In this document: positions 14,189 through 61,400 of the stretch, piece by piece
Layout of the letters: the number at the start of each line of letters is the position of its first letter
Numbering within the stretch: position 1 is the stretch's first letter
Origin: Chroococcidiopsis thermalis PCC 7203
GTDB lineage: Bacteria > Cyanobacteriota > Cyanobacteriia > Cyanobacteriales > Chroococcidiopsidaceae
Assembly: GCF_000317125.1 (NCBI RefSeq)
Contig: NC_019695.1
Location: 358,336-422,335, forward strand
DNA length: 64,000 bases
Reading direction: 5' to 3'
Translations under genes and position numbers: made by a program
The notes under the pieces: model-generated
What the model saw: only the letters and a program-made list of their open reading frames with translations
What the model was told of the DNA's origin: nothing
Databases searched by the model: none

Positions 14189-14200
14189 AGCTGCAAATTT

Positions 14201-39889: not shown

Positions 39890-39894
39890 AAGAA

Positions 39895-42783: not shown

Positions 42784-43608
42784 TTAAGAATTACTCGCTA
42801 CGCGATCGCGATTAACTTGCATGTCGAAAGCTTCTTTACCAGCACGAAACCCAACATCAACTGCTTTGAACATCGCCGGAATGTATTGAAATGGTAAGAG
42901 CAAGCGATTTTCAATATGAAACCACCACCAAGTGCGGGAAAAGTTCATGGCGGATGTCACCAGCCGTCCGCGTCCAAATTTACTCTGACCGGAAAAACGT
43001 GGATGCCAAGGAGTAGCAACCTCTGTAATGTTATATCCCCAACCTGCTAAGATTGCCAAAAGGTAGCGATGGGTCACAACATCAAACGGTACTTTGGTGA
43101 GAATGTCGCGGCGCACGAGTTTGATCCAATTCATATCATGAATTTTCAAACCAAAGGACATCCGACAGGCAAGATTAGCAAATTTAGAAGCCATGACTTT
43201 GCCATCACCGCGTTGCTGTCGCCATCCGGCAACGCCGTCAACTCCTGGTACGCAAGCTTCTAATAATAAAGGTAAGTCACTCTGAAAATCAGATTCTAGA
43301 TCGGCTTGTCCCCAAAATACCCATTCTGTATTAACGTGGGCGATCGCAGTTTTCCAAACTCCGGTAACACCGCGCTTTTGAGGATGTCGAATCGTTTTTA
43401 AATAAGCATATTGACAGCATAACTGTGTCAGAATTTGAGGAGTTTGATCTGTACTGCCATCGTCAATTAAAAGTACTGGCAGAGTAAAGCCTAGATTTTG
43501 AAAAGTGCGATCGAGCGTATAGAAAAGTTTTTCCAAATTACCTTCTTCATTCAAGCAAGGAATTACGATTGTGACGGAGTGACTTAAGGCGGGAGGTGCG
43601 AATAACAT
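42784..43608 (-). CDS. Glycosyltransferase family 2 (polyprenyl-phosphate sugar synthase-like)
   Basis: Motifs VTIVIPCLNEE and LLIDDGSTDQT (DXD). Confidence 0.75.
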   Translation of the reverse strand: MLFAPPALSHSVTIVIPCLNEEGNLEKLFYTLDRTFQNLGFTLPVLLIDDGSTDQTPQILTQLCCQYAYLKTIRHPQKRGVTGVWKTAIAHVNTEWVFWGQADLESDFQSDLPLLLEACVPGVDGVAGWRQQRGDGKVMASKFANLACRMSFGLKIHDMNWIKLVRRDILTKVPFDVVTHRYLLAILAGWGYNITEVATPWHPRFSGQSKFGRGRLVTSAMNFSRTWWWFHIENRLLLPFQYIPAMFKAVDVGFRAGKEAFDMQVNRDRVASNS

Positions 43609-44364: not shown

Positions 44365-47055
44365 ATGAACACTCAAACCAAACGGCTTTATCGCCAACTG
44401 CTTGTAGCTACCTTATTAATGGGTGGCACTTTTAACATGACTGCACCTGTTTTGGCGCAGGCTGTACCGACTGCACCACTCACGGGTGCGGGAACTGAGA
44501 TCAAAAACAAAGCGACTGCTACTTATGAAGACCCCAGTAACCCTGGTACGATAAATGCAACTTCTAACGAAGTGACTATCACAGTAGCAGAGGTTGCAGG
44601 TATCGCTGTTGTTGGTTCGACACCTGTTGACAGGAACGGTAGTAGTGTCTCCAACGGAGATATTTTAGACTTCGACTTTACAATTACTAACGTCGGTAAC
44701 GATACCACTGCTATCTACATTCCAGGCAAGACAATCCTAAATACAGGAGGTCGTATTGTCGGCGGTCAAATCGGTAGTACAGCTGGAGCCAATAGCGTTT
44801 ATATCGTTAGAATTAACGGCAACACGCTGACAACTCCAGTTGCCGTTCCTGATGCTGGCGTTCAATCAGATAATGCTGCATTTATCCTAGCTATTCAAGG
44901 CGCAGGCTATGCTGCTTTTGATGGCTCGATTGATGTCAACCAAGAGATAGTAGTACGAGTTCCTGTCACAGTGACAGAAACCGTAGCAACTAATCCAATT
45001 AGCGTGCAATTCGGTAACACTGCCGATCCTGGAACGCAGAATCGCCAGAACATCCTATATGCAGCCGATGCCACTACTGATGATGATGTGCGGACTGCTG
45101 ACATATCCGAACCGGCTCCTAGAAATTTAGGTCCTGCAAATGGAGAACGGGAAGCAGCAGCATTCCAATCGATTCCTTTAGGAACGCAGGTCACTACCCG
45201 CGCTCTAGCAACTGTACTCAAGACTCGCTCTCTACATACTCCTAATACTTCAGCGCTCGATGACGACCAGATTCGTTACCGTTTAGACTTGCGCGTTGAA
45301 GGCTCCTATCCCAATGCCTCCTCCTTTGCTGTAGGTAACTTGGAAGGAACGGCTCTGGCTAACGCCATTACGGGTGCAGGCGCTCCTACTGGAGCTGTGA
45401 TTTTAGTTTCTGATGTCATTCCTACAAATACAGTTTTGGATGCTGGCTTCTTACCAACCGCACCTTCAGGCTGGACTGTAGTGTATAGTAATGACGATCC
45501 TGCGGCGGCTAACGCTACAGCCCTCAGTGCCAACTGGACAACCACTGCACCTACAAATCAGGCTCAGGCAGATTTAGTGAAGCGGATTGGTATTGTCCGT
45601 ACTGGCTCAATGACTGCTGGATCTTCTACACTTACCGATACAAATGGCTTCCAGTTCCAGGTAAGGACAGCCACGGGCTTCGCTGGTGGTCAAATCCTCA
45701 ACATTGCTCAAGCCTTCGGTCATACCCAAGGAGATAGCGATCTTAACCGGATTATCTATGATGAGTCCGGCGACCAATTCCCCAATAACTTTGAGGGTAC
45801 GACAACTCCTTACGCTGACGGTGCAGGTGGCTTCGATCCTGCTAATGATGACGGTATAGCTCTTGCTACTTACGGTAGTGACCCCAGCAACCAACCTGTA
45901 AATAACCCACAGAGTAACCTGGGTACGGGTAGTGATGGTGAAGTTAACCTACTTTCCATTGACGCACCTGGTAGCATTTTGACCGGACCTAGAGGAGTTC
46001 CAGGGGCAACAGGTCCAGGAAACTCCAATCAGACTGACTACGTGAACCAGTCAATTTCGCCGCCAGTGGGTAAAGATCCTGCCGTTGCGCTCACAAATGC
46101 AGAAACTCTCGATCTTGTTTTCAATAACACGGTCAGAAACCCCAACTCGCTTGGACTCAACAACGTAGTTCTGAAGCCAATTCCCGCTGAACAAGCCGAT
46201 TACGCAGCAGATAACACGGCTGCTAACCAGCAAGACCCCAATACTGGTTATGGTACGAATGCAACCTTACCAAATGGTACGACTGTCAAGATCGAGTATG
46301 GTGGACAATCAGCCACTTATACATGGAATGGCAGTACCTTTAGCACTACTGATACACCAATTAAAATTACTACGCTCAACGGTCAGGTCAGCCTTGACTA
46401 CACAGTAACAGTAAATCTTGGCGATGGCGCTGCTCAAAATGCTGCATATCCAGTAGCGATCGTGGCATTTGTCGATGAAGATAATAACAATGAGTTTAGC
46501 CGGAATTCAACGACTCCCACGGCTGAAAGTATCTTCAACTTGAAGGTCGATCGAACCTATACGGGTTTCGTGAAGCTGACGAAAGAAGCTCGGATTTTGG
46601 ATGATGCTGGTAATCCAATTACTGTAGATGCAACTGGTGCTGCGATCGCAGATCCTGATGGATTTACAACGAATCCAGCTAGACCTCAACCCGGTTGGAA
46701 GATCGAGTATCGGATTTCCTACGAAAACATCTCGACACCTGCTTCTACTGGTGGTAGCGGTAGCGTTCAATTAAGTGCTAGCAACTTCAAAATCTTTGAA
46801 GATGGTACTGGCGATACGACAAACCCCAGAAATGGTACTTGGGCTGCAACTACAGAACACGTACAGACAAAGGCAGTTGGTACACAGGGAACAGTCAGCT
46901 TCTACAATACGACGATCGATACGATCAATCCTGGTTCTGGCGTACCTGAAGCTTTGACGAATACTGGTTATGTCAACTTTATCGGTAGTTTAGCTCCGAA
47001 TGGTACAGCAGGAACACCACAAGGAAACTTCAAGTTCCAGCGTTTAGTGAAATAG
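44365..47055 (+). CDS. Secreted T/N/G-rich surface protein with DUF11-like (conserved repeat domain) modules
   Basis: Signal peptide (LLVATLLMGGTFNMTAPVLAQA); low-complexity T/N/G/A-rich beta repeats; DUF11-like segments (GDILDFDFTITNVGND). Confidence 0.6.
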   Translation: MNTQTKRLYRQLLVATLLMGGTFNMTAPVLAQAVPTAPLTGAGTEIKNKATATYEDPSNPGTINATSNEVTITVAEVAGIAVVGSTPVDRNGSSVSNGDILDFDFTITNVGNDTTAIYIPGKTILNTGGRIVGGQIGSTAGANSVYIVRINGNTLTTPVAVPDAGVQSDNAAFILAIQGAGYAAFDGSIDVNQEIVVRVPVTVTETVATNPISVQFGNTADPGTQNRQNILYAADATTDDDVRTADISEPAPRNLGPANGEREAAAFQSIPLGTQVTTRALATVLKTRSLHTPNTSALDDDQIRYRLDLRVEGSYPNASSFAVGNLEGTALANAITGAGAPTGAVILVSDVIPTNTVLDAGFLPTAPSGWTVVYSNDDPAAANATALSANWTTTAPTNQAQADLVKRIGIVRTGSMTAGSSTLTDTNGFQFQVRTATGFAGGQILNIAQAFGHTQGDSDLNRIIYDESGDQFPNNFEGTTTPYADGAGGFDPANDDGIALATYGSDPSNQPVNNPQSNLGTGSDGEVNLLSIDAPGSILTGPRGVPGATGPGNSNQTDYVNQSISPPVGKDPAVALTNAETLDLVFNNTVRNPNSLGLNNVVLKPIPAEQADYAADNTAANQQDPNTGYGTNATLPNGTTVKIEYGGQSATYTWNGSTFSTTDTPIKITTLNGQVSLDYTVTVNLGDGAAQNAAYPVAIVAFVDEDNNNEFSRNSTTPTAESIFNLKVDRTYTGFVKLTKEARILDDAGNPITVDATGAAIADPDGFTTNPARPQPGWKIEYRISYENISTPASTGGSGSVQLSASNFKIFEDGTGDTTNPRNGTWAATTEHVQTKAVGTQGTVSFYNTTIDTINPGSGVPEALTNTGYVNFIGSLAPNGTAGTPQGNFKFQRLVK

Positions 47056-47104: not shown

Positions 47105-47200
47105 GCTCAAGTGCTTTGCAATATTCCTACCTCTCTGTTACATCCGTGCCTTGAATGGGCAAATTAATGGATGGATTTGAATCATCAGGAGACTGTCACA

Positions 47201-47758
47201 ATGAAACATTTGTCAATGTTTGGCGTAGCTGTCGCCGTATTATTATCTGCACCTCTAGGCGATCGCATCGTTAGCGCCCAACAACAGCCAAAAGCAACAG
47301 TTCAAAACATTCAATCTCAACGCCCCGTACAGTTAAATCTGATGGCAGAAAAGAAAGTCATGCAGAAAGACGCGCAGGGCAAGCCAAAAGCAACTTGGCA
47401 AGCAATGCGGGGAAAAGTTACAGTTTTTCCAGGGGATGTGATTCGCTATACCGTGCGCGGTGCTAACAGTGGCGATCGCCCAGTCAAAAATCTCGTCTTA
47501 ACTCAACCAATTCCCAAGCAGACGACATATATTTTGAATTCTGTTACGATTAACCATCCTGGGGTTGCGGTTACGTACAGTATTGATAATGGCAAGAGTT
47601 TTGTCGAAAAACCAACTGTAAAAGTCAAATTAGCTGACGGTAAGGTTAAAACCGAGCCAGCACCAGCAGAACTCTACACTCACATTCGCTGGAAATTTGA
47701 CAAAGCAGTTGATTCTAGCCAGTTGGTTGGTGCAGCTTATCAAGTCAAGGTGAAATAA
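47201..47758 (+). CDS. Small secreted DUF11-domain protein (candidate fibre/pilin-like subunit)
   Basis: Signal peptide (MKHLSMFGVAVAVLLSAPLG) and a single DUF11-like core (GDVIRYTVRGANSGDRPVKNLVLTQPIPKQTTYI). Confidence 0.55.
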   Translation: MKHLSMFGVAVAVLLSAPLGDRIVSAQQQPKATVQNIQSQRPVQLNLMAEKKVMQKDAQGKPKATWQAMRGKVTVFPGDVIRYTVRGANSGDRPVKNLVLTQPIPKQTTYILNSVTINHPGVAVTYSIDNGKSFVEKPTVKVKLADGKVKTEPAPAELYTHIRWKFDKAVDSSQLVGAAYQVKVK

Positions 47759-47912
47759 ATTCGGAATTCGGAATTCGGAATTCCGAATTTTTACATGAGC
47801 GTCGATCCCCCTAAATCCCCCTTTTTAAGGGGGACTTGGAAAGGTTGAACCACCCTTTTTAAGGGGGACTTGGAAAGGTTGAACCCCCCTTAAAAGGGGG
47901 GCAGGGGGGATC
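47757..47912. repeat. (GGAATTC)4 array followed by a tandem-duplicated GATCCCCC...GGGGGATC palindromic element
   Basis: Visible. CCCTTTTTAAGGGGGACTTGGAAAGGTTGAAC occurs twice. Confidence 0.8.
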
Positions 47913-48015
47913 TAAAAGCTCTACTAGGTCAAAACAATACTGCTCAAATCTCTTCTTAAATAATAGCGATCGCCATTGCACAATTGACCTAAATCAACAT
48001 CGGCTTGTCCTCCAA

Positions 48016-49578
48016 TTGCGGACAAATAAAATAATTATCCAAACGCAGATGCAACCTCCGAACCGATTTTTGAATTATTGGTTGCGACCAATAGCAACAG
48101 CTCTTTTAGCTGGAGCTGTCTCACAAACTTTACTAACTGGTCTAATTCAAGTAGGGGTAGCAATTGAAATCACTAATCAAGCAACTTATAGTTATGAGTT
48201 TAATAACGATAAATCAGAGATTAAACAATCAATCCAAACGACAACAAATAAACTTTCTACCTCAGTAGTCACCACAGATTTAATAGATCCTTTAGGAAAA
48301 ATCACAGGCTGTACTGGTGAAACTTTGCCTGATTATACAGGATTTAGTATTGGTTTGTACGAGCCAAATTCTCAAGATGCAACAACAACAGAAATTGCCG
48401 AACCTGTATCTCTCACTCGTACAGAATCACCAGATATTGCTAACAATAATATTCCCAGAGGATTAGAGCCAAATACAGAAAATAGCAATCCTTTTTTCCT
48501 CACCAATGGCAAAGAAGGAACTTATAATTTCCTTCTCGATCCTCAGCGGGGTCAGTTGGATCGCGGTAAAACTTATATTTTATTAATTCATCCCCCCGAT
48601 AAATCAATTTATGACGAGCGCCGCATCAAGCTCACAATTGGAGAACGGGACGATAGAGTTGTTGCTTATACCGCTACCTCTTTAGACGGCAAACCAATTA
48701 GTGCTACTGACAATCGCACGTCTATTAACGGAACGATTGACATTGAAAATGCCGAACGAATTGGATTAGTCTTAGCCGTTTTGGATTTGGATACAAGCGT
48801 TTGTCAAGCTCAAGAAGTACAAGTTGTCAAAACAGGCGATCGCGCTACAGCCGAACCTGGAGATACAGTTATCTATCGTCTCTCAGTCAAAAATCTCAGC
48901 AGCAGCCCGCTGAAAAATATCGTCGTCACCGATACCTTACCTCTAGGTTTTACCTTTATACCTAAATCCGTGCGGGCAGAGTTGGGCAAATCTCCAGTTG
49001 CGATCGCCTCTAGTCACGATGGCAGAACGATCTCTTTACGTGCAGAAGGAATAGAACTACCAAGTAACGCCACCAACGAGCAAGTTCTGAATATAGCTTA
49101 TGCCGCAGTCCTCACGGCTGACGCAGTTCGCGGCACGGGTGAAAACCTGGCAAACGTGACCGGACAGCGCATTGATAACAACCAAACAGTCAAAGATGGT
49201 CCCGCCGTTCACAGATTACGGATTAATCCAGGCATTTTGTCAGATTGCGGCACGCTGATCGGACGAGTATTCGTAGATAAAAACTTTGATGGCGAACAGC
49301 AACCAGGAGAACCAGGAGTTCCCAATGCGGTGATTTTCATGGATGACGGCAACCGCATTACTACCGATATTCAAGGACTATTTTCTGTTGCCAATGTCAT
49401 TTCTGGTTATCGCACGGGAGTTTTAGATTTCAGTAGCGTACCTGGCTACACCTTGGCTCCCAACCGCCGTTTTATCGAACGCAACAGTCAATCTCGTTTA
49501 GTGCATTTAGAACCTGGTGGAATGGCGCGGATGAATTTTGCTGTGACTCCGATCGCGAAGGAGGCAAAACCTAAATGA
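48016..49578 (+). CDS. Secreted protein with a C-terminal DUF11-like domain
   Basis: N-terminal TM/signal segment. VVKTGDRATAEPGDTVIYRLSVKNLSSSPLKNIVVTDTLPLGFTFI is a DUF11-like core. ATGA overlap with the next gene. Confidence 0.55.
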   Translation: MRTNKIIIQTQMQPPNRFLNYWLRPIATALLAGAVSQTLLTGLIQVGVAIEITNQATYSYEFNNDKSEIKQSIQTTTNKLSTSVVTTDLIDPLGKITGCTGETLPDYTGFSIGLYEPNSQDATTTEIAEPVSLTRTESPDIANNNIPRGLEPNTENSNPFFLTNGKEGTYNFLLDPQRGQLDRGKTYILLIHPPDKSIYDERRIKLTIGERDDRVVAYTATSLDGKPISATDNRTSINGTIDIENAERIGLVLAVLDLDTSVCQAQEVQVVKTGDRATAEPGDTVIYRLSVKNLSSSPLKNIVVTDTLPLGFTFIPKSVRAELGKSPVAIASSHDGRTISLRAEGIELPSNATNEQVLNIAYAAVLTADAVRGTGENLANVTGQRIDNNQTVKDGPAVHRLRINPGILSDCGTLIGRVFVDKNFDGEQQPGEPGVPNAVIFMDDGNRITTDIQGLFSVANVISGYRTGVLDFSSVPGYTLAPNRRFIERNSQSRLVHLEPGGMARMNFAVTPIAKEAKPK

Positions 49579-52500
49579 AGTGGAGAACGCGATTTTTCAA
49601 TGCCTTCCTAGTAATTACTACAGTGAATGCGATCGGTTTGTTGATTCTGCCTAAAACTGCTAGAACAGAACCACTACAAACTCAAACAGAATTTGGTACT
49701 TACGTAGCAGCATTACCAATCGAATTGAGACAAGTACAGCGATCGGTGACAGAAAAGCGCTGGCACGATTATATTGTGGCATTACTTGCCCAACCTAAGA
49801 CATCTGTACCTGTAGAGAATACGCAGGAATTCGGCACTTACGTAGCAGCGTTACCGATTGAAGCCGTTGCAACACCACCCTCAGAAACAGATCAACAGTT
49901 GCAACAACTGCTGGTGGCGTTCCTCGCTGCACCAGGGACAACAACAGTAGCTACGCCAGATTTCGGGAACGACACAGTTGCATTACCGATCGCCTTAAAT
50001 CGAGAACAGACAGTTACGGATTTTCCTGAAGCTGAAGTTGCATTACTCTCTTTGCCAGCAGCATCAGATGTCATCGAAAATACTCACACTTCACCTCAGG
50101 ACGTACCATCAGGAGCGATCGAACAAAATACAAATATCCCATCCCAGAGCGTACCGCAATCTGAAGCAGAGCAAAAGTATGCTAACTACTTGGTTGCTTT
50201 ACGGGAACAAAACCAGTCACCAAACTCGGAAAATATCGATTCCCAGACAACTTCCACTCCAAGCCCAAATGACCTAAAATTTCTTTCGCCGCGATCGAGC
50301 CAAGTCTTGGATGTGCCAGCTACTACGGTAACTGTGCAGTCTCCCGCAAATATTCCTGTTGAACTGTCAGTAAATGGTGAACTAGTCGATACATCTTTAA
50401 TTGGTGGTACAGAAACAAACAACACGGCGAATTCCGTGACGCAGACATGGTATGGCGTGCCACTCCAGCAGGGAGAGAATCACCTCACACTTAAAATTAA
50501 GACTGGCGATCGCGCTGGAGAATCAACGACAGTTAAAGTATACGTGCGCGGTAATACTAAACAAATCACCGTCCAAACGCAAGAATCGCGAATTCCCGCC
50601 GATGGACGTTCGACGGCAACGATTGAAGGGCAGCTACTCGATGACAAAGGCAATCGCACCAACGAAGATGCGATCGTCACTCTTGATGCTAGTGCTGGGG
50701 AGTTTGTCGGTAAGGATGCTAAGCCCGATATCCCAGGATTTCAAGTCCTGGCACGCAAAGGACAATACTCGGCTGAACTGCGATCGGGACTACAAGCGCA
50801 AACAGTCAGAATTCGCGCTGAAGCTTTTCAGCTAGAAGCATATACCCAATTTCAATTTGAAACGAATCTGCGCTCTAGTCTAGTTACGGGTGTTGTTGAC
50901 TTGCGTTTAGGTGCGAGAGGCACTGATTTTTACAAGAGTTTTCGCGACTTTTTGCCCCCCGATGAAGACAACCGCACCGAACTGAGTTTTCATACAGCAG
51001 TTTTTGCCACAGGTAAAATTGGCGAATGGTTGTTTACAGGAGCATATAACAGCGATCGCACCCTGAATCAAAAATGCGACGGCACTTCGGGTTTGTTTCG
51101 AGATTACCAAGTCTGCGATCGCAACTATCCCGTTTACGGCGATAGTTCTAAAGTCGAGGCTGTCACCCCTTCTCAAGATAGTTTATATCTGCGCTTTGAG
51201 CGATCGGCATCCATTCCTGGCGCTGAGCCTGACTATGTGATGTGGGGTGACTACGATACAAAAGAGTTTGCTCGCTCCTCACAAGAATATACTGCGACTT
51301 CTCGTAACCTCCACGGATTCAAAGCAAATTATAATCTAGGAGATTTTCAACTTTCAGTATTCTATGGCGATAACGTTGAAGGTTTTCAACGCGACACGAT
51401 CCCGCCTGATGGTACGAGCGGTTATTATTTCCTCTCGCGACGCTTGCTTATACCTGGAAGTGAAAACATCTCGATTGAAGTCGAAGAACTCAATCGCCCA
51501 GGTACGGTATTGTCACGTCAACAACTGGTTCGGGGTACGGACTACGACATCGACTACGATCGCGGCACGTTGTTATTTCGCGAACCAATTTTCCGCACGG
51601 CTGTAGATGAAAACGGACAAGTTTTGGTGCGGCGAATCGTTGCCACCTATCAGTATGAGAGCCAAGAAAAGGACAATCGCATCTACGGTGGTAGAGTTCA
51701 GTACAACATCTCGCGACAACTTGAGAATGAAAGTTGGCTCGGTGCAACATATTTAAAAGAAGAACGCGGCATTCGCGACTTTGAACTTTACGGTGCAGAC
51801 GCGCAAATTGCGATAAGTGACAAGATACATTTGATTGCCGAATACGCTCACTCTCAAAATGATTCAGAAATGATGGGAGAAGTCAGCGGTTCGGCTTATC
51901 GGTTAGAGGCTGAGGGAGAGATTGCCAAAGGGATTCAAGGTCGAGCTTATTGGCGCTCTACCGATACAGGTTTTAGTAACAACGCGACAACTAGCTTTGT
52001 CCCAGGACAAACTCGTTATGGAGCGCAGGTTACAGGACAGGTCGCTGCAAAAACTAATGTTCGGTTGCAGTACGACCATGAAGACAATCGCGGCATAGCA
52101 CCTCAACCGTTAGATAATTTTACCGATTTATTTTCACCCCGTTCGGAGGCGATTCCAGGTAGTAAGGTTGACAACTCGCTGACAACGATTACAGCCGGAG
52201 TACAGCAGCAGATTGGTAAAGCCGACCTCACATTAGATTGGGTACATCGGCATCGAGAAGACCGGATCGAACCGAATGCTTTGAGCGGTACTTCAGACCA
52301 ATTGCGATCGCGTCTCAAGTTACCTTTAACTGAAACTCTCACTTTTTTAGCCCAAAACGAACTGACCATTTCTAATGAAGAGGATGCTGTTTATCCAGAC
52401 CGAACGATTGTAGGTTTAGATTGGAAAGTTGCACAAGATTTGAGTATTCGCTTATCGCAACAGTTTTACAGTGGCAGTCAGAATGATGGTAACTCGATTA

Positions 52501-53741
52501 CCAGTCTCGATTTTATTGGCGAACGCAAATTCGGTACGGATACCACTGTCAACGGGCGTTACTCCATTTTAAATGGAGGTGACGGGATGACAACACAGGG
52601 TGCGATCGGGATAAAACAAGGTCTGACCATTGCCCCTGGGTTAAAGCTGGACTTGGGATACGAGCATGTATTTGGTAGTTTCTTCAATCGGACTGGAGCA
52701 GGTAAGCAGTTCGTGCAACCTTTTACAGCGGGACAAAGTGCCTCTTCAATTGGCGTTGACTCCGGCGATAACTACCATATTGGCTTAGCATACACGCCTA
52801 GCGACGATTTCAAAGCTAGCGCTCGTTACGAACATCGGAATTCTTCTGGTGGTTCTAATACAGTTATTTCTGCAAATGTAACCGGAAAAATTTCTCCCGC
52901 GCTAACGGGTTTGGTTAACTATCAACAGGCGAATGCTTCTAACCAAAGACTCTCAGGGTTGGGAGATACGGCTCACTTAAAAGTGGGTCTAGCATATCGC
53001 GACCCGAATAACGATAAATTTAATGCTTTGTTACGTTATGAATATCGCAAGAATCCTTCTACAATTCCCGATACGATTTTACTCGGCAGCGGTACGGGTT
53101 CCAAAGACCATACTTTTGCTCTAGAAACTATTTATGCTCCTAACTGGCGATGGGAACTTTACGGCAAGTATGCGATTCGCCACAGTACCTCTTACTTAGC
53201 AGCAGATTTAGTTAATTCCAGTACGATTAATTTGGGACAATTACGAGCGACTTATCGCTTGAACGACAAAATCGATTTGGTCGGTGAAGCTCGCTGGATT
53301 AATCAACCTTCAGAAGATCGCAGCGAGACGGGTTTTGTTGCTGAAGCAGGCTACTACCTGACACCAAATCTGCGGTTATCGGCAGGATATGCTTTTGGTC
53401 AGGTGAATGATGACGATTTTAGCGGCTCTCGTTCTGCTGGTGGGGCTTATTTTGGTTTAACCGTGAAATTGAACGAATTGTTTGATGGTTTTGGGTTGCA
53501 AAAACCCGTTCCTGCATCGAAGAAAGCACAGGAGCAGGGGAGCAGGGGAGCAAGGGGGCAAGCGACCCCCCTAACTGAGCTTAAAAAGGAGGGCGAAAGT
53601 CGTTCGATTCCGCCTCAAGCAAATCCAAAGGCGATCGCTCCTAATACTCTTCCAGAAAGTAAGGAGGAAACAACTCAGGTTCAGTCATATTTAGACAGAG
53701 AAATAAATTCAACTTCGTTAGAATCTATCGCAAGGGAATAG
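49575..53741 (+). CDS. Giant outer-membrane protein: N-terminal (EFGTYVAALPIE)-type repeats, Big_1 Ig-like domain, ~900-aa predicted beta-barrel
   Basis: Signal peptide. Three copies of a QTEFGTYVAALPIE-like motif. An invasin/intimin-type Ig-like segment (TVQTQESRIPADGRSTATIEGQLLDDKGNRTNEDAIVTLDASAGEF). Then a long stretch of alternating hydrophobic residues with a C-terminal aromatic signature (GGAYFGLTVKLNELF), characteristic of OM beta-barrels. Confidence 0.5.
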   Translation: MKWRTRFFNAFLVITTVNAIGLLILPKTARTEPLQTQTEFGTYVAALPIELRQVQRSVTEKRWHDYIVALLAQPKTSVPVENTQEFGTYVAALPIEAVATPPSETDQQLQQLLVAFLAAPGTTTVATPDFGNDTVALPIALNREQTVTDFPEAEVALLSLPAASDVIENTHTSPQDVPSGAIEQNTNIPSQSVPQSEAEQKYANYLVALREQNQSPNSENIDSQTTSTPSPNDLKFLSPRSSQVLDVPATTVTVQSPANIPVELSVNGELVDTSLIGGTETNNTANSVTQTWYGVPLQQGENHLTLKIKTGDRAGESTTVKVYVRGNTKQITVQTQESRIPADGRSTATIEGQLLDDKGNRTNEDAIVTLDASAGEFVGKDAKPDIPGFQVLARKGQYSAELRSGLQAQTVRIRAEAFQLEAYTQFQFETNLRSSLVTGVVDLRLGARGTDFYKSFRDFLPPDEDNRTELSFHTAVFATGKIGEWLFTGAYNSDRTLNQKCDGTSGLFRDYQVCDRNYPVYGDSSKVEAVTPSQDSLYLRFERSASIPGAEPDYVMWGDYDTKEFARSSQEYTATSRNLHGFKANYNLGDFQLSVFYGDNVEGFQRDTIPPDGTSGYYFLSRRLLIPGSENISIEVEELNRPGTVLSRQQLVRGTDYDIDYDRGTLLFREPIFRTAVDENGQVLVRRIVATYQYESQEKDNRIYGGRVQYNISRQLENESWLGATYLKEERGIRDFELYGADAQIAISDKIHLIAEYAHSQNDSEMMGEVSGSAYRLEAEGEIAKGIQGRAYWRSTDTGFSNNATTSFVPGQTRYGAQVTGQVAAKTNVRLQYDHEDNRGIAPQPLDNFTDLFSPRSEAIPGSKVDNSLTTITAGVQQQIGKADLTLDWVHRHREDRIEPNALSGTSDQLRSRLKLPLTETLTFLAQNELTISNEEDAVYPDRTIVGLDWKVAQDLSIRLSQQFYSGSQNDGNSITSLDFIGERKFGTDTTVNGRYSILNGGDGMTTQGAIGIKQGLTIAPGLKLDLGYEHVFGSFFNRTGAGKQFVQPFTAGQSASSIGVDSGDNYHIGLAYTPSDDFKASARYEHRNSSGGSNTVISANVTGKISPALTGLVNYQQANASNQRLSGLGDTAHLKVGLAYRDPNNDKFNALLRYEYRKNPSTIPDTILLGSGTGSKDHTFALETIYAPNWRWELYGKYAIRHSTSYLAADLVNSSTINLGQLRATYRLNDKIDLVGEARWINQPSEDRSETGFVAEAGYYLTPNLRLSAGYAFGQVNDDDFSGSRSAGGAYFGLTVKLNELFDGFGLQKPVPASKKAQEQGSRGARGQATPLTELKKEGESRSIPPQANPKAIAPNTLPESKEETTQVQSYLDREINSTSLESIARE

Positions 53742-56700
53742 CCATGCGCAAGGTTCAATTTTACAGTGTGCTAGGGACTCTAAAGCTTGAAGAGAAAGCG
53801 ATCGCAATCCATCTATATTCCGGTAAGTTCGAGCTGGCAGCTTTTGTCTGCACCTTCATCTTATGTATTCTCGGCTATTGGACGCAGCCAGCCCAAGCTG
53901 AAGGTAGTAAAGAACTCAACTCTAGTAGTGGCAAGAGAGCTTATACTGAGTGGGATACCGTACAAACAACAGCTGGGATTGCTCGGAAAAGCACGCTCAA
54001 AGTTTACGTGAATGCTGGAGAAAAGATTAATCTTGGCTCTAGTGTCTACAACAGTGCTGGAGGAGGGACTCAAGATATTGTCTACCGCAGTCCTAATGGA
54101 GGACAGGATGGTTCTTGTGATGTCCTCCAAACGGGCTTCGGCTTGATTGATACAACCACTAAAGAAGCTAACGGACCATTTCCTAGTGCAGGCGGATATA
54201 CTCCTTGCCAAATTACTGCAACTGAAACTGGAATCTACGAAGTAGAATTTCATGCTCCACTTTCAGATGGAACTGGTCAAAACCCGCTCATGATTGCTAC
54301 AACCACTGCCTTTGCCACAGATGCAACTCAAAGAGCAACAGTAGCAGCTTGGGACATTACTGTAACTAATAGTTCCGCTCAAGCTATTCCTGGTCGGGTA
54401 TTTGCGAATTACCTAGCTCTCAACATAGGTAATAATACGAATGACTCGATAGGAGCTTTGAGTTCTGCTGTATTTGTCAAAACCGCAGATGGTTATTTAT
54501 ACAGAATAGATTTCAACGGCTTAGATCCCTTTGGATTTATCATGCTATCCAATCCACAAGGGTTTACTTCAGGAGGAAATCGACTCTACAAATCCGTTCA
54601 ACTTGGGAGTGGTGATAGTTTACCGAGTGGAGGCGCGATCGATAGCTCCGTAGCAGGGACTAATAAAATATTTTTTAATCCTCCAAGCATGGACTTACCA
54701 GCTACGGCTTCGCTACCTAGCGGTGGTTCGACATGGCTCCAGTCTTTAGTCGCTCCTCCTCCTGCTGCACCGACTAACTTTGAGTTCGTCGGCAAAGAAG
54801 CAAACACTCCTGGTAAAGCAGGTACATTTCCTTTGGGTGGTTATTTCAAATTTAATGTGGCTCAAGCAGGACGTTACCGAATTTTTCTAGACTTCAACGG
54901 TAATGGTACTTTTGATAGCAACGATCGCATCTTATCTGGAATTTCCACAGTTGGGACTAATTCTGTGGAATGGGACGGTAAGGATGGATTGGGTGTGGCT
55001 CTCAGACCCGATGCGACTGGATATCGTGCTAGTATTGCGGTCACGGTTGATGTTGGTGAAGTCCACTTTCCCTTTATTGACGCTGAGAACAACCCCAGAG
55101 GCATCATCGTAACGCGACAGAATTGTACTCTCAGCGAGCCATTAGCCGGGTGTACGATTGTCTACTACAACGATACTGGATTAATTGGAGGAACTGTACC
55201 CAATCCTATTGCTGCTAAGGGTGGAATTGACAGCAGTACAGGCGCTCATGCTTTTAGTAGCTCTTTTGGCGATCACAAAGGAATCGATACCTGGACGAGC
55301 GTTCCATCTACCTCTGACTCTATAGAATCTGGTGGCATCGTTCTCCGAGAAGCTGACCTGCAAGTGACGAAAACACATAGTTTTTCCAATGTTGTTGGTA
55401 GCCAAATTACTTACACAGTCACCGTAACTAACAAAGGTCCCAGCGATACAAGCGATATTGTCGTTACTGACAATATTCCTGGCACTGTTACTAATGTCAC
55501 TTGGACTTGTGCAATTACTAATGATGTTGCTGGTAGTCTCGCTAATGCTTGTGGTGCAGCCAATGGTTCGGGGAACAACCTCAATACCACATTAACGCTT
55601 AATAAAGATGCAGTTGCCACTTTTACTATTACGGGTACTGTTCCTAGTTTTGCAGACTTGTCGAATTCAGTTACTGCTAAAACTCCACTAGATGTGACAG
55701 ATCCGAATACAACCGCTAACGATTCTCACACTAACACTGTTACCGATACCTTTATATTTGGTACTCCTCCTACTGTAACTAAAACTGACGTGCTTGCTAT
55801 TGATGGCGATCGTTCTGGTGGTACAACTCCTTTAGCAAACCAAGCTGTTACCCCAGGGGATACTTTAGAGTACAGGATTACTGTGACCAACCCTAGCACA
55901 AATACAGCAATTAGCAACGTCATACTGACCGATACCATTCCTACCAATACGACTTATGTTTCTGGTACTTTAAGAGTTGCTGCGGGAGCTAATACCGGAA
56001 ACAAAACTAATAGTCTAGATACCGATCAAGCAGAAATCATTAACAACAATACTAATGTTATCTTTCGTCTGGGAACAGGAGCAAACGGCACATTAGGGGG
56101 AAGTTTGACTGCTGGGCAAAGCACTACAGTCACATTTCGCGTTCGGGTTAACAATCCTTTTCCGAATGGTGTGTCTCAAGTGTCTAATCAAGCATTTGTT
56201 GCTAGCGACAAATTTCCGAGTCTTAAAAGTAACGATCCTGATACTTCTACAGCAGACGATCTGACTGTTACTCGTATAGCAGCACGGCTACGCTTAGTTA
56301 AACGAATTACAGCCATTAATACCACAAATTTTACTAATGTTGTCGATCCTACTACAACTAGCGATTTAAATGACAATAGTAATGTGAGATGGTTGTCTAA
56401 CTATTTACAAGGCAAAGTCTTTGATACTACGCAACCTGGAGACGAAATTGAATATACAATCTACTTTATTTCGGATGGAGCGAATTCAGCAAATAATACA
56501 GCTTTGTGCGATCGCATTCCTACGAACACCAGTTTTATTTCTAATACCTTTAATAGTGGTTACACTGCTAATAGTTTAGGTTTATCAGGAACAGATAGAG
56601 GTATTCTCTGGCAATACAGCGGCACGACTCAATCGTTAACAAATCTCAGTGATGGAGATGCCGCAACCTATTTTCCCCCAGGAGTTGAGCCGAGTAACGT

Positions 56701-56776
56701 TTATCCCAATATTAATTGTCAGGGCAGTAATACCAATGGGGCGATCGTGGTTAATTTAGGTAGTTTACCCAATCTT

Positions 56777-57979
56777 AGATCTTGCACCAGTACAGATACT
56801 CTAGTTGCGAAAGAGTAGGTTTCAATGAGAGAAAAGGGCGTGAAACCAATTGAATGCAAGAACGATGGAAACCCTTCTTGCCCACGCCCAAGGGCTAGTC
56901 TACACCCTACTTGATTTGATGCCGAGCCACTATCAACGAGATAGCCTACAAGCCTTGCTGGGATTATTTTTACAAGCTCAAGGACATCCTCTGCCCCAAC
57001 AATGCAAAACTAAATCAGCCAGTGCCTTAAGTCGGTTTCTCAACGTCTACCCCTGGTCAACTCGTCGGCTGATTCGTAGTACCCGCTCCTTTGTCCTGCA
57101 GCAAATTCTGTCACAGCCACGAATTGGACGTAGACCCATCTTACAAGTCATCATCGACTTAACCACCCTAGAAAAACGCGGCAAGTTCAAGCTGTTGGAT
57201 GGATTAGTGCGAGTCTTCCATAGCAAACGTGGGCTACACCTAGTCGTGATGTATCTAGTAGTGGGTCAATGGCGCGTGCCGTGGAATTTTCGAGTTTACC
57301 GAGGGAAAAATCATTCCTCACCAGCACAGTTGGGGCTACGACTTGTACAAAGCTTACCTTCATTGCTGAGTCAACACTTTCAGCTCATGATTTTAGTAGA
57401 TACAGCCTTTGGTAGTGCCGAATTTTTACATGGTATACGTAAATTAAAATATCACGCCATTGCCGGAGTACGCTGTGACCGCAAGCTACAAGATGGGCGC
57501 AATGTTAAGCAACTATGCAGGCGGGGACAACAAGTGCGACTGGTAAAATTAAAGTTTCCAGTTTCACTGTCTTGGTACTATCTCAAGCGTGACGACGGTA
57601 GGCTGGAAAAGCGCTTTGTCCTCTCTACCAAACCACTTAAAGCTAGTACTATCAATTACTGGGGCAAAAAGCGTTGGCAGATTGAGGGATGGTTCAAAAC
57701 TGCTAAACATCGGTTTGGATTAGACCAATTTGGTCAGGGCACATTGCTAGGTGTCTACCGTTGGCTGGTATTGTCACTTTTAGCTTATTTGTTAGCACAT
57801 TGGGCTTATTTGTCTACTGCATCTACCGACTCACCTGATTGGGGTAAGGCGGCTCAACTGGCACTTGAAGCATTACTGCCTCAACTAGTGGTGTTGCTCC
57901 TGCTGCTGGAGAGCAAACGCCTCACACCCCTAGCACGCTCCCTTGGTTTTGACATTCAAATCACTTGCTGCAAGATCTG
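56777..57979 (+). mobile_element. IS4-family insertion sequence, about 1.2 kb
   Basis: Terminal inverted repeats AGATCTTGCAcCAgtAc (56777-) and, as reverse complement, AGATCTTGCAgCAagTg (-57979). Contains one DDE transposase ORF. Disrupts the host ORF. Exact ends and TSD are ambiguous; a 4-bp ATCT duplication would restore the host frame. Confidence 0.7.
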
Positions 57980-57980
57980 A
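56850..57980 (+). CDS. IS4/IS701-like DDE transposase
   Basis: 376 aa containing LMILVDTAFGSAEFL and KRWQIEGWFKTAKHRFGLDQF, both typical of IS4-superfamily transposases. Confidence 0.75.
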   Translation: MNARTMETLLAHAQGLVYTLLDLMPSHYQRDSLQALLGLFLQAQGHPLPQQCKTKSASALSRFLNVYPWSTRRLIRSTRSFVLQQILSQPRIGRRPILQVIIDLTTLEKRGKFKLLDGLVRVFHSKRGLHLVVMYLVVGQWRVPWNFRVYRGKNHSSPAQLGLRLVQSLPSLLSQHFQLMILVDTAFGSAEFLHGIRKLKYHAIAGVRCDRKLQDGRNVKQLCRRGQQVRLVKLKFPVSLSWYYLKRDDGRLEKRFVLSTKPLKASTINYWGKKRWQIEGWFKTAKHRFGLDQFGQGTLLGVYRWLVLSLLAYLLAHWAYLSTASTDSPDWGKAAQLALEALLPQLVVLLLLLESKRLTPLARSLGFDIQITCCKI

Positions 57981-58477
57981 GCAATGCAACGGGTGCAGGT
58001 ACGCCAATTAATTCCTACGGCTTCATTCGTTTTCGGGCTAAGGTGCAATAAGAAAAATAGCAGCACGAAATTTAAAGTAGGCGATCGCTGTTATACGTAC
58101 ACGTAGTTGGAGCGGACATAGAGTTTTGAACTGGAGCAGTTTTACATTATGTCTATACATAATTTACTTGTGAAGAATATACCTGAATCAAAATTATTGT
58201 ACTGAAAGATATCTAATTCTAACTGGGCAAGCTAAATCATACGATCGGTTATGAGTTTTTACTAAAAGTTACAATACTTAGAAATTTTCAAATGTTCATA
58301 AACGAAAACCACTGTAAAACTGCTGATAGCTACCTTATCAATCGTATCTATCGATTGCTAGCTGCCAAAAAACGATTCAATGACCGCAGATTCAATAAAA
58401 CTACAATGATTAAAAAAATGAATTGCAGTCAATAAAGCTGGCGCGATCGCCACAATTTACTCAGGCTGGAAGAAGGA

Positions 58478-61400
58478 TTGGCAATTATTATGAATAAACC
58501 TGTAATGTTAAAAAAACTTGCTCCAATTACCTTAACCGTTGTTGGAGTACTTTTATGTTGTCCCCTAAAAGCAAATGCCACTCCCAACTTACAAATTAAA
58601 CCCATTTCCTGGGACATTATCGGTCTAGATAGTAATAAACCTGATATTGAAGGACCCAATGTTTTTAATATTGGAGCTAGAGTTTGTAATCTCGGTACAT
58701 CTGCCGCTAAAGATATACAAGCGAAGATTAACTTGGGTTCGGGAACGGGTAGTGCTTATATTTCACTTCTCGGTCTGAATACTTTAAATATTAACTATCT
58801 ACCTGCTGGCGGTGCTGGATCGACATTTCATAATATTGGTAATACTGGCGCAACTCCAGCTTACTGCACAGATTTTTATTTCAACATTCAAGTTCAGCGA
58901 CTTCTAGCTGCTCAAAACACGTATCGAGAATATTATATTGAGGCAACTGGTAAAGATTTAAGCGGTACTCAGCTAGCGACAATTACAACTCCTCAACCTC
59001 GCCGTTTATACGTTGAAAAATTAGTCGAGCAGAATCGTAATAAGGTACTCACTTTCACAGGCACAACCACCGTACAATCAGGAGATATTGTAGATTATAC
59101 GGTAACTGGTCAGACAGCAACTGGAGGTTATGAACAATTAGTTTTTGCTACTAACTTTCCCAACACTGTTTTTCAGGTTCTTAAAGTTAATACCAATTAT
59201 ACAACTCCCTCTGGTACAACTAATAATTCCATTTATGGTGATGCCTGTGGTTGGGATTCAGATCCTAATTCTAGTTATTACCGAACTTGCGATAATCTGA
59301 GTATTTCTGATGGTTATACAGGTGGAAAAGTTGGCGATGACTTTACTGCAAGATACAAAGTAAAAATTATTGCTACTCAGAATCAAACAATTGGTGTTTC
59401 TAGTTTAGTTTATGATAAATCTGGCTCTAGTTATCACTACAATACAACTTATAAAATTCCACCCGACTATGACATTAATATTAATGTTACTCCTGCTGTA
59501 ACAGCAGATTTAAGTTTAACTAAGACAGTCAATAAATTACTGCCTAATGTAGGGGAAAATGTCACCTTTACGATTAATGTAAAAAACGATGGTCCTGACA
59601 ACGCTACAAATGTCAAGGTTCAGGATATCTTACCTACTGGAATAACCTACGTTTCCTCGAATGCCTCTGTCACCTTTGGCGCTACGACTCCTACTTATCT
59701 CAGTGTCAGCGATTACAACGGAGGTGTTTACATTTCTAGTACGGGGATGTGGGATATAGGTACGCTTCCCAAAGGCGCTACTGCAACGCTTCAGATTGTG
59801 GCAACAGTAAATACCACTAATGCCATTACTAATATTGCTGAAGTCAACGCCAGCGACCAAACCGATCCTGACTCTACTCCGAACAACAATAACGTCAACG
59901 AAGACGATCGCGCTGCTGTAACTTTTAATCAAAGGGTATCCATTTCTGGTACGGTGTTTGAAGATGTTAACTATGGTGGTGGTGTAGGGCGCGACTATAC
60001 GACTGCTAACAATTCAGCCGCACTCTCCGGCTTCGCTACAGGTGTAATTCGCCGCCCAAACGTACGGGTAGAGTTATATAGCTCGGCAGGCAATTTCTTG
60101 ACTTCCACTCTCACTGATACTAACGGCGCTTACAGCTTCACCAATCAGCCAGGAAATACAAGTTACACGGTGCGCGTGGTTAACGGTACTGTAACTTCTG
60201 CCCGTCCCAGTTCGGGAGGTACGCTCATCCCGGTACAGACTTATCGTACCGATGCCACTACGGGAACTATAACTGCGGTTGCGGATCGGGTGGGGGGAGA
60301 AAACCCGACATTAGTTGATGCGGGCAATGGTAGTACCACGTTAGCCGCACTCACTACCGCTACAACCGCTGCTCAATCGATCGCCCAAATTAATGCTGGT
60401 GCTGGTAATATCACGGGTATAGACTTCGGCTTTAACTTTGACACCATAGTCAGTACGAGAGATTCCGGTCAGGGCAGCTTACGCCAGTTCATTATTAACA
60501 GTAATACTCTCAACAATACGAGTCTGGCTCAAGTTGGAGTGCTTTCCGGTAGGGAGGAGAGTATCTTCATGATTTCAGATGGTGCAGCTCATCCCGGTTT
60601 ACGGGCGGGGTTACCTAACCAATTTAGCGGTGGTGTCGCCACAATTACTTTAGCAACTGCTCTACCCGCGATCGCAAATGCAACTAGTACTAACGCTAAC
60701 CGTACTAGTATTGATGGTAGAACCCAAACTGCCTTAACTGGAGACACTAACGCACCAATATTTAACAACACGACTGGACCAGAAATTGTTCTCAACGTCG
60801 CCGCCGGTCCTGGGCTGGAAGTGCAAGCTAGCTTTACTTTTATTAAAAATATCGGTATTACTGGTGCTAACGGTGTAGGTACGGCAGGTGTGGGAGTCTA
60901 TTTCAATGGTGCGGGGGCAGCGAACTCGCGGCTAGAAGATGCTACTATTTTTAGCAATGATAACTCAGGCGTAAAGTTTCAAAGTGCCACTAGCGCTTAC
61001 GTTAATTCCAATATCATTCGTAATAATGGCGTGACCGATCCTCTTGCTGATGGGGTCGAACTGATTGGCTCTAGTAGCAATAACGTGACTGAGAATATCA
61101 TCATCAACAACCCAGGTTACGGGATCGATCTACATACGACTACCAACAACAGCAACAACCTGAGTAGTAACCAGATTATCAACAATGGCGCACCCGACGA
61201 CACTCAGGATGCTGGAATTGGTATCCGCTTAGGAAGCAACAACCTGATCGGTCAAAATACGATCGCTAACAATCTCGGTGATGGTATTGTCGTTGCTGCG
61301 GGAACGGGCAACACAATGACTGAAAACTCGATTTATAGCAACGGTGGACTTGGCATCGATTTGGGTGGTGGTAGCGAAGGTAATGGGGTGACGCTTAATG

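Follow-up and report, generated by a model that had tools for sequence, protein, structure and literature searches.

A giant β-barrel-type protein encoded in a CLIPPER/DUF11 cassette of Chroococcidiopsis thermalis PCC 7203, a probable pore or anchor for surface fibres

A CLIPPER/DUF11 Cassette Surrounds the Barrel Gene

The window, that is, the whole 64,000-nucleotide stretch of C. thermalis PCC 7203 DNA analysed here, contains a gene for a protein with a giant β-barrel-type domain at the fourth position of a cassette of CLIPPER/DUF11 genes (Table 1). The position of gene 1 is matched in the Calothrix, Synechocystis PCC 7509, Aphanothece, and T. variabilis loci, and the mature N-terminus of its product carries a shared motif, GTxIxNxAxAxYxD..SNxVxxxV, which was found in 57 of 64 fused barrel proteins, in all six DUF7925 proteins, and in 27 of 57 other CLIPPER proteins. 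In 62 of 84 loci from different phyla, a homologue of gene 2 (165–230 aa) lies near the barrel gene, nearly always on its upstream side; the conserved motifs are PGDxIxYT, SIDxGKTF, YTHIRW, and a C-terminal FKVKVK. No PDB relative of this protein was found; it is a candidate for the repeating subunit. The stop codon of gene 3 overlaps the ATG of the barrel gene by 4 nt (ATGA), an overlap kept in relatives, and the best PDB sequence match of its product was 9IFR (E = 0.013).

Downstream of the barrel gene, gene 5 matched DUF11 (78.3 bits), TIGR01451 (99.1 bits), TIGR04226 (36.3 bits), and DUF7927, and its orthologues (936–1053 aa) also come after the barrel gene in relatives. Gene 6 encodes a candidate distal or adhesive component, and the last 190 aa of its product share 53% identity with gene 5. 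Relatives of this protein come after the barrel gene in the Synechocystis PCC 7509, Aphanothece, Balneolaceae, and Thiobacillus loci. Domains of pilin or adhesin type occur in the partners (isopeptide fimbrial TIGR04226, SpaA_4, and β-helix). Domain searches of the window ORFs revealed no further outer-membrane or secretion gene in the cassette, which also encodes no chaperone-like gene or energy source; a PapD-like chaperone domain was absent from every cassette ORF, both in this window and in A. junii.

Table 1. Features of the cassette and of the barrel gene. Positions are those of the window.
Feature	Position (nt)	Strand	Remarks
Cassette gene 1, 896-aa secreted protein, DUF7925	44365–47055	+	Pfam DUF7925, 178 bits
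Cassette gene 2, 195-aa secreted protein, single CLIPPER-like domain	47171–47758	+	Weak DUF11 match
Cassette gene 3, 520-aa CLIPPER (DUF11) and SdrD_B protein	48016–49578	+	DUF11 40.4 bits; TIGR01451 61.8 bits; SdrD_B sub-threshold
Barrel gene (position of cassette gene 4), 1388 aa	49575–53741	+	ATG start
Signal peptide, about aa 1–31	49575–49667	+	Read from sequence; boundary approximate
Variable repeat linker, aa ~32–230	49668–50264	+	Conserved in closest relatives only
EFGTYVAALPIE, copy 1, aa 39–50	49689–49724	+	
EFGTYVAALPIE, copy 2, aa 85–96	49827–49862	+	
DFGNDTVALPIAL, degenerate third copy, aa 129–141	49959–49997	+	7/12 positions match EFGTYVAALPIE
Ig-like β-sandwich domain 1, aa ~234–324	50274–50546	+	AF2 model 1, pLDDT ~80–85; conserved in relatives
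Ig-like β-sandwich domain 2, aa ~329–429	50559–50861	+	Invasin_D3/Big_1/GH2_C5 type
β-barrel-type domain, aa ~436–1299	50880–53471	+	~40 long antiparallel strands, ~38 in wall; last strand ...GLTVKLNELF
Conserved inserted β domain, aa ~600–701	51372–51677	+	DGTSGYYFLSRR..GSE..IEVEELNRPG..DYDIDYDRGTLLFREPI; on long hairpin between wall strands
C-terminal tail, aa 1300–1388, plus stop codon	53472–53741	+	Variable, charged
Cassette gene 5, 1024 aa, three CLIPPER domains and isopeptide-forming fimbrial domain	53744–56818	+	3' end severed by IS insertion
IS element	56774–57981		16-nt inverted repeats, 56774–56789 and 57966–57981
DDE transposase ORF inside IS element	56850–57980	+	
Displaced native 3' end of cassette gene 5, NATGAGTPINSYGFIRFRAKVQ*	57983–58051	+	Matches C-terminus of 58478–62410 paralogue
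Cassette gene 6, 1310 aa, CLIPPER, SdrD_B, right-handed β-helix (NosD-like)	58478–62410	+	

N-Terminal Part of the Barrel Protein

The reading frame proposed in an earlier sequence-only reading was borne out, and its length of 1388 aa from the ATG is kept among homologues that are up to 94% identical. The protein comprises, in order, a signal peptide, a repeat linker, two Ig-like domains, the giant β-barrel-type domain, and a C-terminal tail. The proposed signal peptide is plausible from the residues themselves (MKWRTRFF, a hydrophobic stretch, then PKTARTE), and the N-termini of relatives are equivalent. Three direct repeats had also been described; two are exact copies, but the third is degenerate. 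A pattern search found three copies in P0001 and P0002, one in P0003, and none in the other 117 relatives, a count that leaves aside the variant EFGNYLASLPIE of P0004, which falls outside the search pattern. Other family members have different short tandem repeats in linkers of 27–314 aa. Because the repeat is confined to the closest relatives and the repeats of other members differ, the region is a lineage-specific, fast-evolving linker and not a family feature, and we rejected the repeats as a functional family motif.

A single Big_1-type Ig domain had been announced; it is present as domain 2, but a second Ig-like sandwich precedes it. Both lie ahead of the barrel, confirming the proposed order, which is opposite to that of intimin and invasin. 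Both domains probably face the periplasm. In the distant relative P0182, SLH domains separate the CLIPPER portion from the Ig domains, and some other relatives have a C-terminal OmpA domain; this suggests that the barrel-adjacent region is periplasmic, whereas the N-terminal CLIPPER arrays might lie on either side of the outer membrane.

The C-Terminal Region Has a Giant β-Barrel-Type Fold

The AF2 model of the barrel domain consists of 40 long strands with almost no helix (pLDDT 76, pTM 0.69). Two Pfam outer-membrane-barrel families matched above their cutoffs, namely DUF2490 (36.7 bits, cutoff 29.8) and Porin_4 (38.9–42.3 bits, cutoff 27), although the latter match spans only profile positions 177–303 of 310 and not the full 16–18-strand trimeric porin model, lies within aa 1060–1200, and occurs in only some relatives; it reflects similarity at the level of barrels. 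Foldseek lists consisted almost wholly of transmembrane barrels, the best matches being SlpA, FimD, LptD, MtrB, TonB-dependent transporters, and SprA, each with a probability of about 1. With single-sequence and profile searches of the PDB, the sole match was a de novo designed barrel (E = 0.0025 and 0.03).

The last barrel strand is conserved with an aromatic residue at its end (GPYLGLTVKLNELF; GPYVKLRFKF in distant relatives). GLTVKLNELF had been read as the terminus of the protein; it is indeed the last barrel strand, but a variable 89-aa tail follows it. We take this aromatic-ended strand to resemble the BAM β-signal. Together with the signal peptide and the long amphipathic antiparallel meander, it belongs to the generic traits of outer-membrane β-barrels.

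These data support the earlier view of a barrel-like region of about 900 aa whose size, at about 38–40 strands, goes far beyond that of porins or ushers; the AlphaFold check suggested at that time yields a barrel-type fold of about 40 strands that would be closed. Weak closure couplings (see below) and the pTM of 0.49 of a first AF2 model might nevertheless speak for a soluble or periplasmic all-β repeat protein, an open sheet or solenoid scaffolding the CLIPPER proteins; given the two Pfam families, the fold matches, the conserved last strand, and the better second model, we hold this to be quite improbable.

Covariation was analysed in an alignment with a Meff of only 221 for 876 columns. 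Mean coupling was 0.249 between adjacent strands versus 0.106 for non-adjacent pairs, and 20 of the 39 adjacent pairs exceeded the 99th percentile of the non-adjacent ones, in keeping with one continuous meander. Two tandem barrels (e.g., of 22 and 18 strands) were rejected, because the junction of strands 22 and 23 is strongly coupled, which argues against separate barrels, and a 23–40 closure coupling is at background. Among non-neighbours, strand 40 pairs best with strand 1, in an antiparallel register that is consistent but weakly coupled (94th percentile). A coupling of strand 1 to strand 22 (99th percentile) has no explanation so far, and residue-level covariation between the N- and C-termini was too noisy to judge closure.

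Between wall strands ~7 and ~8, the AF2 model and the covariation both place an inserted β domain, which is delimited by the strand couplings 7–10 and 8–9. It shows five short strands in the AF2 model and the couplings F172-G281, G174-I279, T184-V265, I208-A266, F244-I264, and L227-Y270. It is also the densest run of invariant columns in alignment A1, and several of its columns remain conserved in the very diverse alignment A2 and in A4.

The Barrel Family Is Linked to CLIPPER Proteins across Phyla

The family comprises 2185 clusters at 50% identity, with members in Syntrophales, Desulfobacterales, Nitrospirota, Wallbacteria, Elusimicrobia, Balneolaceae, Limisphaerales, Pyrinomonadaceae, Burkholderiales, and Acinetobacter. 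Gene order is constant and the flanks differ in Calothrix PCC 7507, Synechocystis PCC 7509, an Aphanothece MAG, and T. variabilis, and the distribution of the cassette is patchy and island-like. In most of the distant, non-cyanobacterial relatives, the equivalent of gene 3 residues ~260–511 is fused N-terminally of the Ig domains and barrel, and up to about 2400 aa of CLIPPER-type domains precede the barrel in P0228 and P0182. As to whether homologues always neighbour DUF11 proteins, a question raised with the sequence-only reading, they always adjoin them or are fused to them. The barrel gene is one part of a phylum-spanning CLIPPER/DUF11 cassette. Synteny and fusion demonstrate a functional linkage, not transport. 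We found no literature on this family or its cyanobacterial members and no experimental data for any member.

CLIPPER domains, the type found in the cassette partners and in the barrel-fused modules, are known to form the stalks of fibrillar adhesins at the cell surface (PMC12617251; PDB 9IFR). That study covers the CLIPPER stalk domain and its isopeptide bond; the terms "barrel" and "outer membrane" are absent from its text, and porins come up once, in an unrelated passage on archaea.

Comparison with Known Outer-Membrane Systems

Many homologues are named TonB-dependent receptors by NCBI, and such transporters are among the best Foldseek matches, but their scores were no better than those for LptD, FimD, or SlpA (TM ≤ 0.2). 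A Pfam search of the target's barrel fragment and six relatives gave no match to Plug (PF07715) or TonB_dep_Rec (PF00593) at E ≤ 10, and no NCBIfam model for TonB-dependent receptors matched the barrel protein. The AF2 models contain no mixed α/β plug, and there are about 38–40 strands rather than 22. An energised nutrient importer was therefore rejected as hardly credible. A TonB box would be positioned near the mature N-terminus, which is a variable linker without a family-wide conserved motif.

Membership among ushers, autotransporters, two-partner or inverse autotransporter systems, LptD, or SprA was also rejected, with no HMM matches and only generic structural similarity. The likeness to FimD/PapC ushers lies in a large outer-membrane barrel within an operon of Ig-fold fibre subunits, in accessory Ig-like domains on the barrel polypeptide, and, by analogy only, in a β-sandwich inserted between strands, as the usher plug is between β6 and β7. 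FimD was among the best Foldseek matches (E = 1.8e-7 to 5.8e-7), but with a TM of only 0.21–0.26; Usher, PapC_N, and PapC_C did not match at E ≤ 10, the strands number ~38 versus 24, Ig domains are N-terminal only, a PapD-like chaperone gene is lacking, and the subunits contain CnaA-like CLIPPER domains in place of incomplete-Ig pilins.

Fused relatives have the passenger-to-C-terminal-barrel order of type Va autotransporters, and the cyanobacterial pair of a CLIPPER protein and a barrel with N-terminal periplasmic-type domains mirrors TpsA/TpsB of two-partner secretion (Vb). However, type V barrels have 12 or 16 strands, the cassette has several more cargo-like proteins, and no HMM for Autotransporter, Bac_surface_Ag, POTRA, or ShlB matched the barrel protein. 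In contrast to intimin and invasin, the Ig domains precede a barrel of ~865 aa that does not match the 12-stranded IAT_beta, and LysM is absent. LptD (26 strands, OstA/β-jellyroll) differs in that no OstA or LptD HMM matched and Foldseek TM was 0.13–0.20. The 36-stranded SprA of the T9SS differs in its length (~2400 versus 865 aa), TM (0.17), and lack of an SprA HMM match; the cassette has no T9SS genes, and its ORFs no Por_Secre_tail sorting domains. The barrel family is also present in phyla that lack a T9SS.

A giant envelope protein resembling SlpA/OmpM, tethering the outer membrane to the cell wall with CLIPPER and Ig domains as a periplasmic strut, or a large diffusion porin, was also considered. 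SlpA of Deinococcus radiodurans is a 30-stranded SLH-barrel, but the TM to it was only 0.25, and SLH, coiled-coil, and OmpA domains are lacking in the target as well as in its cyanobacterial relatives. Close linkage to β-helix and isopeptide-fimbrial adhesin- or pilin-type proteins is unexpected for a housekeeping porin, and the cassette lies in islands whose flanks vary by genome. SlpA is not known to have a CLIPPER cassette. This explanation is improbable in our opinion.

Proposed Function

Because the barrel is always encoded beside, or fused to, CLIPPER/DUF11 surface-fibre proteins, it probably serves as pore or anchor in a system for assembling surface fibres that has yet to be described. 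More specifically, we give an even chance to an integral outer-membrane protein whose C-terminal ~865 residues form one very large β-barrel-type sheet of ~38 wall strands, serving as dedicated pore and anchor of a CLIPPER fibre.

An anchoring role alone, for a single fibrillar adhesin and with other cassette proteins reaching the surface by general pathways, is unlikely in our opinion. The N-terminal CLIPPER array of the barrel protein itself would then act as the stalk, a part played in cyanobacteria by the separate 520-aa protein. Arrays as long as those of P0228 and P0182 are typical of surface stalks (PMC12617251) and too long for the periplasm, and a passenger ahead of the barrel follows the classical autotransporter order. 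However, 8–16 strands, not ~38, would suffice for an anchor, the conserved insert suggests a gated lumen, and a ~175-aa protein and at least two more signal-peptide CLIPPER proteins are kept beside the barrel across phyla that differ greatly in general secretion repertoires.

As a dedicated pore and anchor for a CLIPPER surface fibre or adhesin, the barrel would be the sole membrane component of a self-contained cassette whose other products would all be Sec-exported CLIPPER/DUF11 proteins (isopeptide-type, CnaA-like), and would unite the function of an usher with that of an autotransporter or two-partner translocator. The CLIPPER and SdrD_B module, a translationally coupled 520-aa protein in cyanobacteria and barrel-fused elsewhere, may be the basal subunit, engaging the barrel via both Ig-like domains. 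The wide lumen would let the single-CLIPPER protein of ~190 aa and the large CLIPPER, β-helix, and DUF7925 proteins pass the outer membrane, to be assembled on this base, while the conserved domain of ~100 residues, looped out between two wall strands, may gate or plug the pore.

More tentatively, the family may represent a phylum-spanning and so far unrecognised pathway by which diderms secrete isopeptide-stabilised CLIPPER fibres across the outer membrane and assemble them, built on the largest single-chain β-barrel yet seen (~38 strands) with its own gating domain. Needing neither sortase nor chaperone, subunits would perhaps be joined via the shared GTxIxNxAxAxYxD..SNTV strand module at their N-termini, either through an intermolecular isopeptide bond or through complementation of the donor-strand kind.

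How Gram-positive-style, isopeptide-bonded CnaA/CLIPPER stalk proteins cross the diderm outer membrane is largely unexplained, and the barrel gene points to a dedicated machine. This candidate spans cyanobacteria to Acinetobacter and is accessible to genetics in cultured hosts. If true, a single-chain barrel of ~38 strands widens the size range known for BAM substrates. Finally, dozens of "TonB-dependent receptor" database entries appear to be misannotated, which affects inventories of cyanobacterial iron uptake.

Domain organization of the 1388-aa protein

The 1388-aa ORF proposed from sequence alone is present exactly as claimed (+ strand, ATG start) and is intact, its nearest database relatives being 94% and 87% identical and 1389 and 1377 aa long, respectively. 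As also proposed, it starts with a typical Sec-type signal peptide, directly followed by a linker (aa ~32-230). The triple repeat described in this linker was slightly overstated, because EFGTYVAALPIE occurs in exactly two copies (aa 39-50 and 85-96) and the third, degenerate copy, DFGNDTVALPIAL (aa 129-141), agrees at only 7 of 12 positions. The repeat is no family feature: out of 120 homologues, a pattern search detected it in 3, and homologue P0004 carries a close variant, EFGNYLASLPIE, outside the search pattern. Homologues have linkers of anywhere between 27 and 314 aa, and those of other members contain other short tandem repeats (VALLSQP, QPFQPAxxTxLPRGLxKIA, and ELAPVEPI).

For the Big_1 Ig-like domain of the sequence-only reading, the Pfam models Invasin_D3, Big_1, and GH2_C5 all matched aa 328-422, but below threshold; Invasin_D3 exceeded its cutoff in a relative, P0018. 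The C-terminal part matched Porin_4, at 38.9 bits in the whole protein and 42.3 in the barrel fragment against a cutoff of 27, and DUF2490, at 34.6 and 36.7 bits against a cutoff of 29.8. No NCBIfam model matched the protein. A second structure model, of the barrel only (aa 425-1300) and based on a far more diverse alignment of 85 sequences, reached a pLDDT of 76 and a pTM of 0.69, with 40 long strands and 5 short strands (fragment residues 207-253), almost helix-free. The fold class of the C-terminal domain is clear, and the overall geometry of the model has no counterpart among solved structures. The GLTVKLNELF strand, previously read as a terminal aromatic strand, is conserved family-wide but is not the protein end, as a variable tail of 89 aa lies behind it.

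Covariation within the barrel

Strand pairing was analyzed by mean-field DCA on 354 non-redundant family sequences aligned to the protein (Meff 221). Mean coupling was 0.249 for sequence-adjacent strands versus 0.106 for non-adjacent strands, and 20 of 39 adjacent pairs exceeded the 99th percentile of non-adjacent pairs. Since adjacent strands couple far above non-adjacent ones, these results support a continuous beta-meander. Strong coupling at the junction between strands 22 and 23 (I521-Y541), together with a 23-40 closure coupling no higher than background, makes two tandem barrels unlikely.

Couplings F172-G281 and G174-I279 join strands 7 and 10, T184-V265 joins strands 8 and 9, and I208-A266, F244-I264, and L227-Y270 connect the short strands. 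A single long hairpin thus carries a beta domain (fragment residues ~176-277, aa ~600-701), and ~38 strands remain for the wall. This insert contains the densest block of invariant columns of the cyanobacterial alignment (DGTSGYYFLSRR..GSE..EELNRPG..DYxIDYDRGTLLF), several of which are still conserved in cross-phylum alignments.

The covariation signal for barrel closure is weak. Outside its neighbours, strand 40 couples best with strand 1, and the register is consistently antiparallel (i+j = 883-890), but the coupling reaches only the 94th percentile. Two other register-consistent, non-adjacent couplings at the 99th percentile, 1-22 (aa 436-447 vs 942-953) and 2-21 (aa 468-482 vs 922-931), do not fit the meander of one simple barrel; the N-terminal hairpin may, for instance, be packed on the wall or within the lumen. 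A soluble all-beta scaffold would agree with the weak closure signal, but beside the Porin_4 and DUF2490 matches we regard it as highly improbable.

A conserved gene cassette

The barrel gene is the fourth in a same-strand cluster, and every non-IS product of this cassette has, by inspection, a signal-peptide-like N-terminus.

Features of the cassette and its surroundings in the window
Feature	Position	Remark
Envelope/polysaccharide-type gene cluster	35157-43608	- strand, divergent, upstream of the cassette; GT2, GT4, HlyD-family membrane-fusion protein, TPR protein, 1101-aa PMT_2 glycosyltransferase-like protein
DUF7925 protein	44365-47055	
195-aa single-CLIPPER protein	47171-47758	
Intergenic region	47759-48015	tandem GGAATTC heptamers; CCCTTTTTAAGGGGGACTTGGAAAGGTTGAACC in two direct copies; GCGATCGC (HIP1-like) sites
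520-aa CLIPPER+SdrD_B protein	48016-49578	stop overlaps barrel ATG by 4 nt
Barrel protein	49575-53741	
1024-aa protein	53744-56818	three CLIPPER domains and isopeptide-fimbrial domain
IS element	56774-57981	16-nt inverted repeats (56774-56789, 57966-57981)
IS transposase	56850-57980	DDE transposase ORF
Displaced C-terminus of the 53744-56818 gene	57983-58051	NATGAGTPINSYGFIRFRAKVQ*
1310-aa CLIPPER + beta-helix protein	58478-62410	

The IS element inserted ~20 codons short of the end of the gene encoding the 1024-aa protein, whose native C-terminus is still readable behind it. This protein and the 1310-aa protein have ~190 C-terminal aa in common (53% identity; aa 832-1010 vs 1103-1289), and may be paralogues or carry a common C-terminal module. 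The repeats in the intergenic region ahead of the 520-aa gene are of the short kind typical of cyanobacteria. A cluster like the divergent one upstream was not found in the cassette flanks of the other genomes examined.

The cassette order, including the 4-nt overlap, is repeated in Calothrix PCC 7507, Synechocystis PCC 7509, an Aphanothece MAG, and Trichormus variabilis, with unrelated flanking genes in each; because the order recurs while the flanks do not, the cluster is a self-contained cassette. The question of whether homologues neighbour DUF11 proteins was answered positively: in 62 of 84 loci the 195-aa protein has a homologue near the barrel gene, nearly always upstream. Additional CLIPPER proteins, 600-3000 aa long, are also encoded on the flanks of the barrel gene.

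Fused forms and relatives in other phyla

An exhaustive HMMER search matched the barrel to 2185 clusters at 50% identity, of which 1657 had E <= 1e-10. Relatives with ~30% identity are proteins of 800-3290 aa that carry the barrel as their C-terminal domain and whose N-terminal parts contain DUF11/CLIPPER, DUF7507/DUF7619, CarboxypepD_reg, and SdrD_B domains. Residues ~260-511 of the 520-aa protein align inside the same polypeptide as the barrel in distant relatives, in the order CLIPPER+SdrD_B, Ig1 and/or Ig2 (where detected), barrel; the cyanobacterial gene pair is thus a split form of a protein fused elsewhere. Fused forms were found in Smithella and other Syntrophales, Desulfobacterales including the cultured Desulfatibacillum alkenivorans, Nitrospirota, Candidatus Wallbacteria, Elusimicrobia, Balneolaceae, Limisphaerales, Pyrinomonadaceae, Thiobacillus, Gallionella, Polaromonas, and many Acinetobacter species.

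A ~35-residue module (GTxIxNxAxAxYxD..SNTVxxxV) occupies the mature N-terminus of 57 of 64 fused barrel proteins and occurs in 6/6 DUF7925 proteins, 27/57 other large CLIPPER proteins, and none of 57 small proteins, against a loosely estimated background of 15%. In the window, it was noted in the DUF7925 and 520-aa proteins, as well as in loci L006-L084 of relatives. The module resembles a pair of orphan CLIPPER-type strands and might serve to join one subunit to another.

Dozens of NCBI and UniRef entries of the family (homologues P0015-P0120) are named 'TonB-dependent receptor'. No plug or receptor model matches, and the family lacks every defining feature of such receptors that the analysis covered. 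A receptor of this type is extremely improbable, and the naming is probably a systematic misannotation.

Peptidoglycan-binding domains, either SLH or a C-terminal OmpA, occur occasionally among distant barrel relatives and hint at a barrel tethered to the cell wall there. In homologue P0182, three SLH domains separate the CLIPPER part from the Ig domains, and the OmpA domain is present in P0185 and in relatives of ~1400 aa (P0335-P0349). SprA or SlpA are nearest to the barrel in size. We consider an SlpA/OmpM-like structural protein or porin quite improbable; SLH is absent from the protein studied here.

Proposed function

CLIPPER (DUF11) is a CnaA-like domain, often with an intramolecular isopeptide bond, and makes up the stalk in fibrillar adhesins of the cell surface (PMC12617251). 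The cassette encodes Sec-exported CLIPPER proteins and, as its sole membrane-type protein, the barrel, which in most phyla is physically fused to one of them. We therefore conclude, at roughly even odds, that the barrel is the outer-membrane pore for a CLIPPER surface fibre or adhesin and also its anchor, with transport role, topology, and closure inferred. In kind, it would be an outer-membrane barrel platform for surface-fibre proteins. The same fusions would suit an adhesin for which the barrel serves as anchor only, which we consider unlikely. Under the pore-and-anchor reading, the CLIPPER+SdrD_B module would be the basal subunit and the Ig pair a docking platform; the subunit that repeats would likely be the small protein, and the conserved insert domain would act as a gate.

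In this proposed mode of working, an usher or type V translocator would be nearest. Membership in the usher, type V translocator, SprA, or SlpA families was rejected: HMM matches were lacking, strand number differs, and TM was <= 0.3. The chaperone, POTRA, SLH, and plug of known systems are likewise absent. Full-text literature searches and term searches within papers turned up no account of this barrel family or of any system that combines CLIPPER proteins with a barrel. That it represents a truly new secretion and assembly pathway is possible but less likely than not.

Among the Acinetobacter loci, L045 (Acinetobacter junii CIP 64.5, 1905-18248) contains CLIPPER proteins, a 2030-aa fused barrel, and a 1350-aa protein bearing a SpaA_4 prealbumin-like pilin domain. 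A 164-aa ORF takes the small-protein position; its homology was undetected, though related Acinetobacter loci do match. A. junii CIP 64.5 is a tractable cultured host that carries the cassette.
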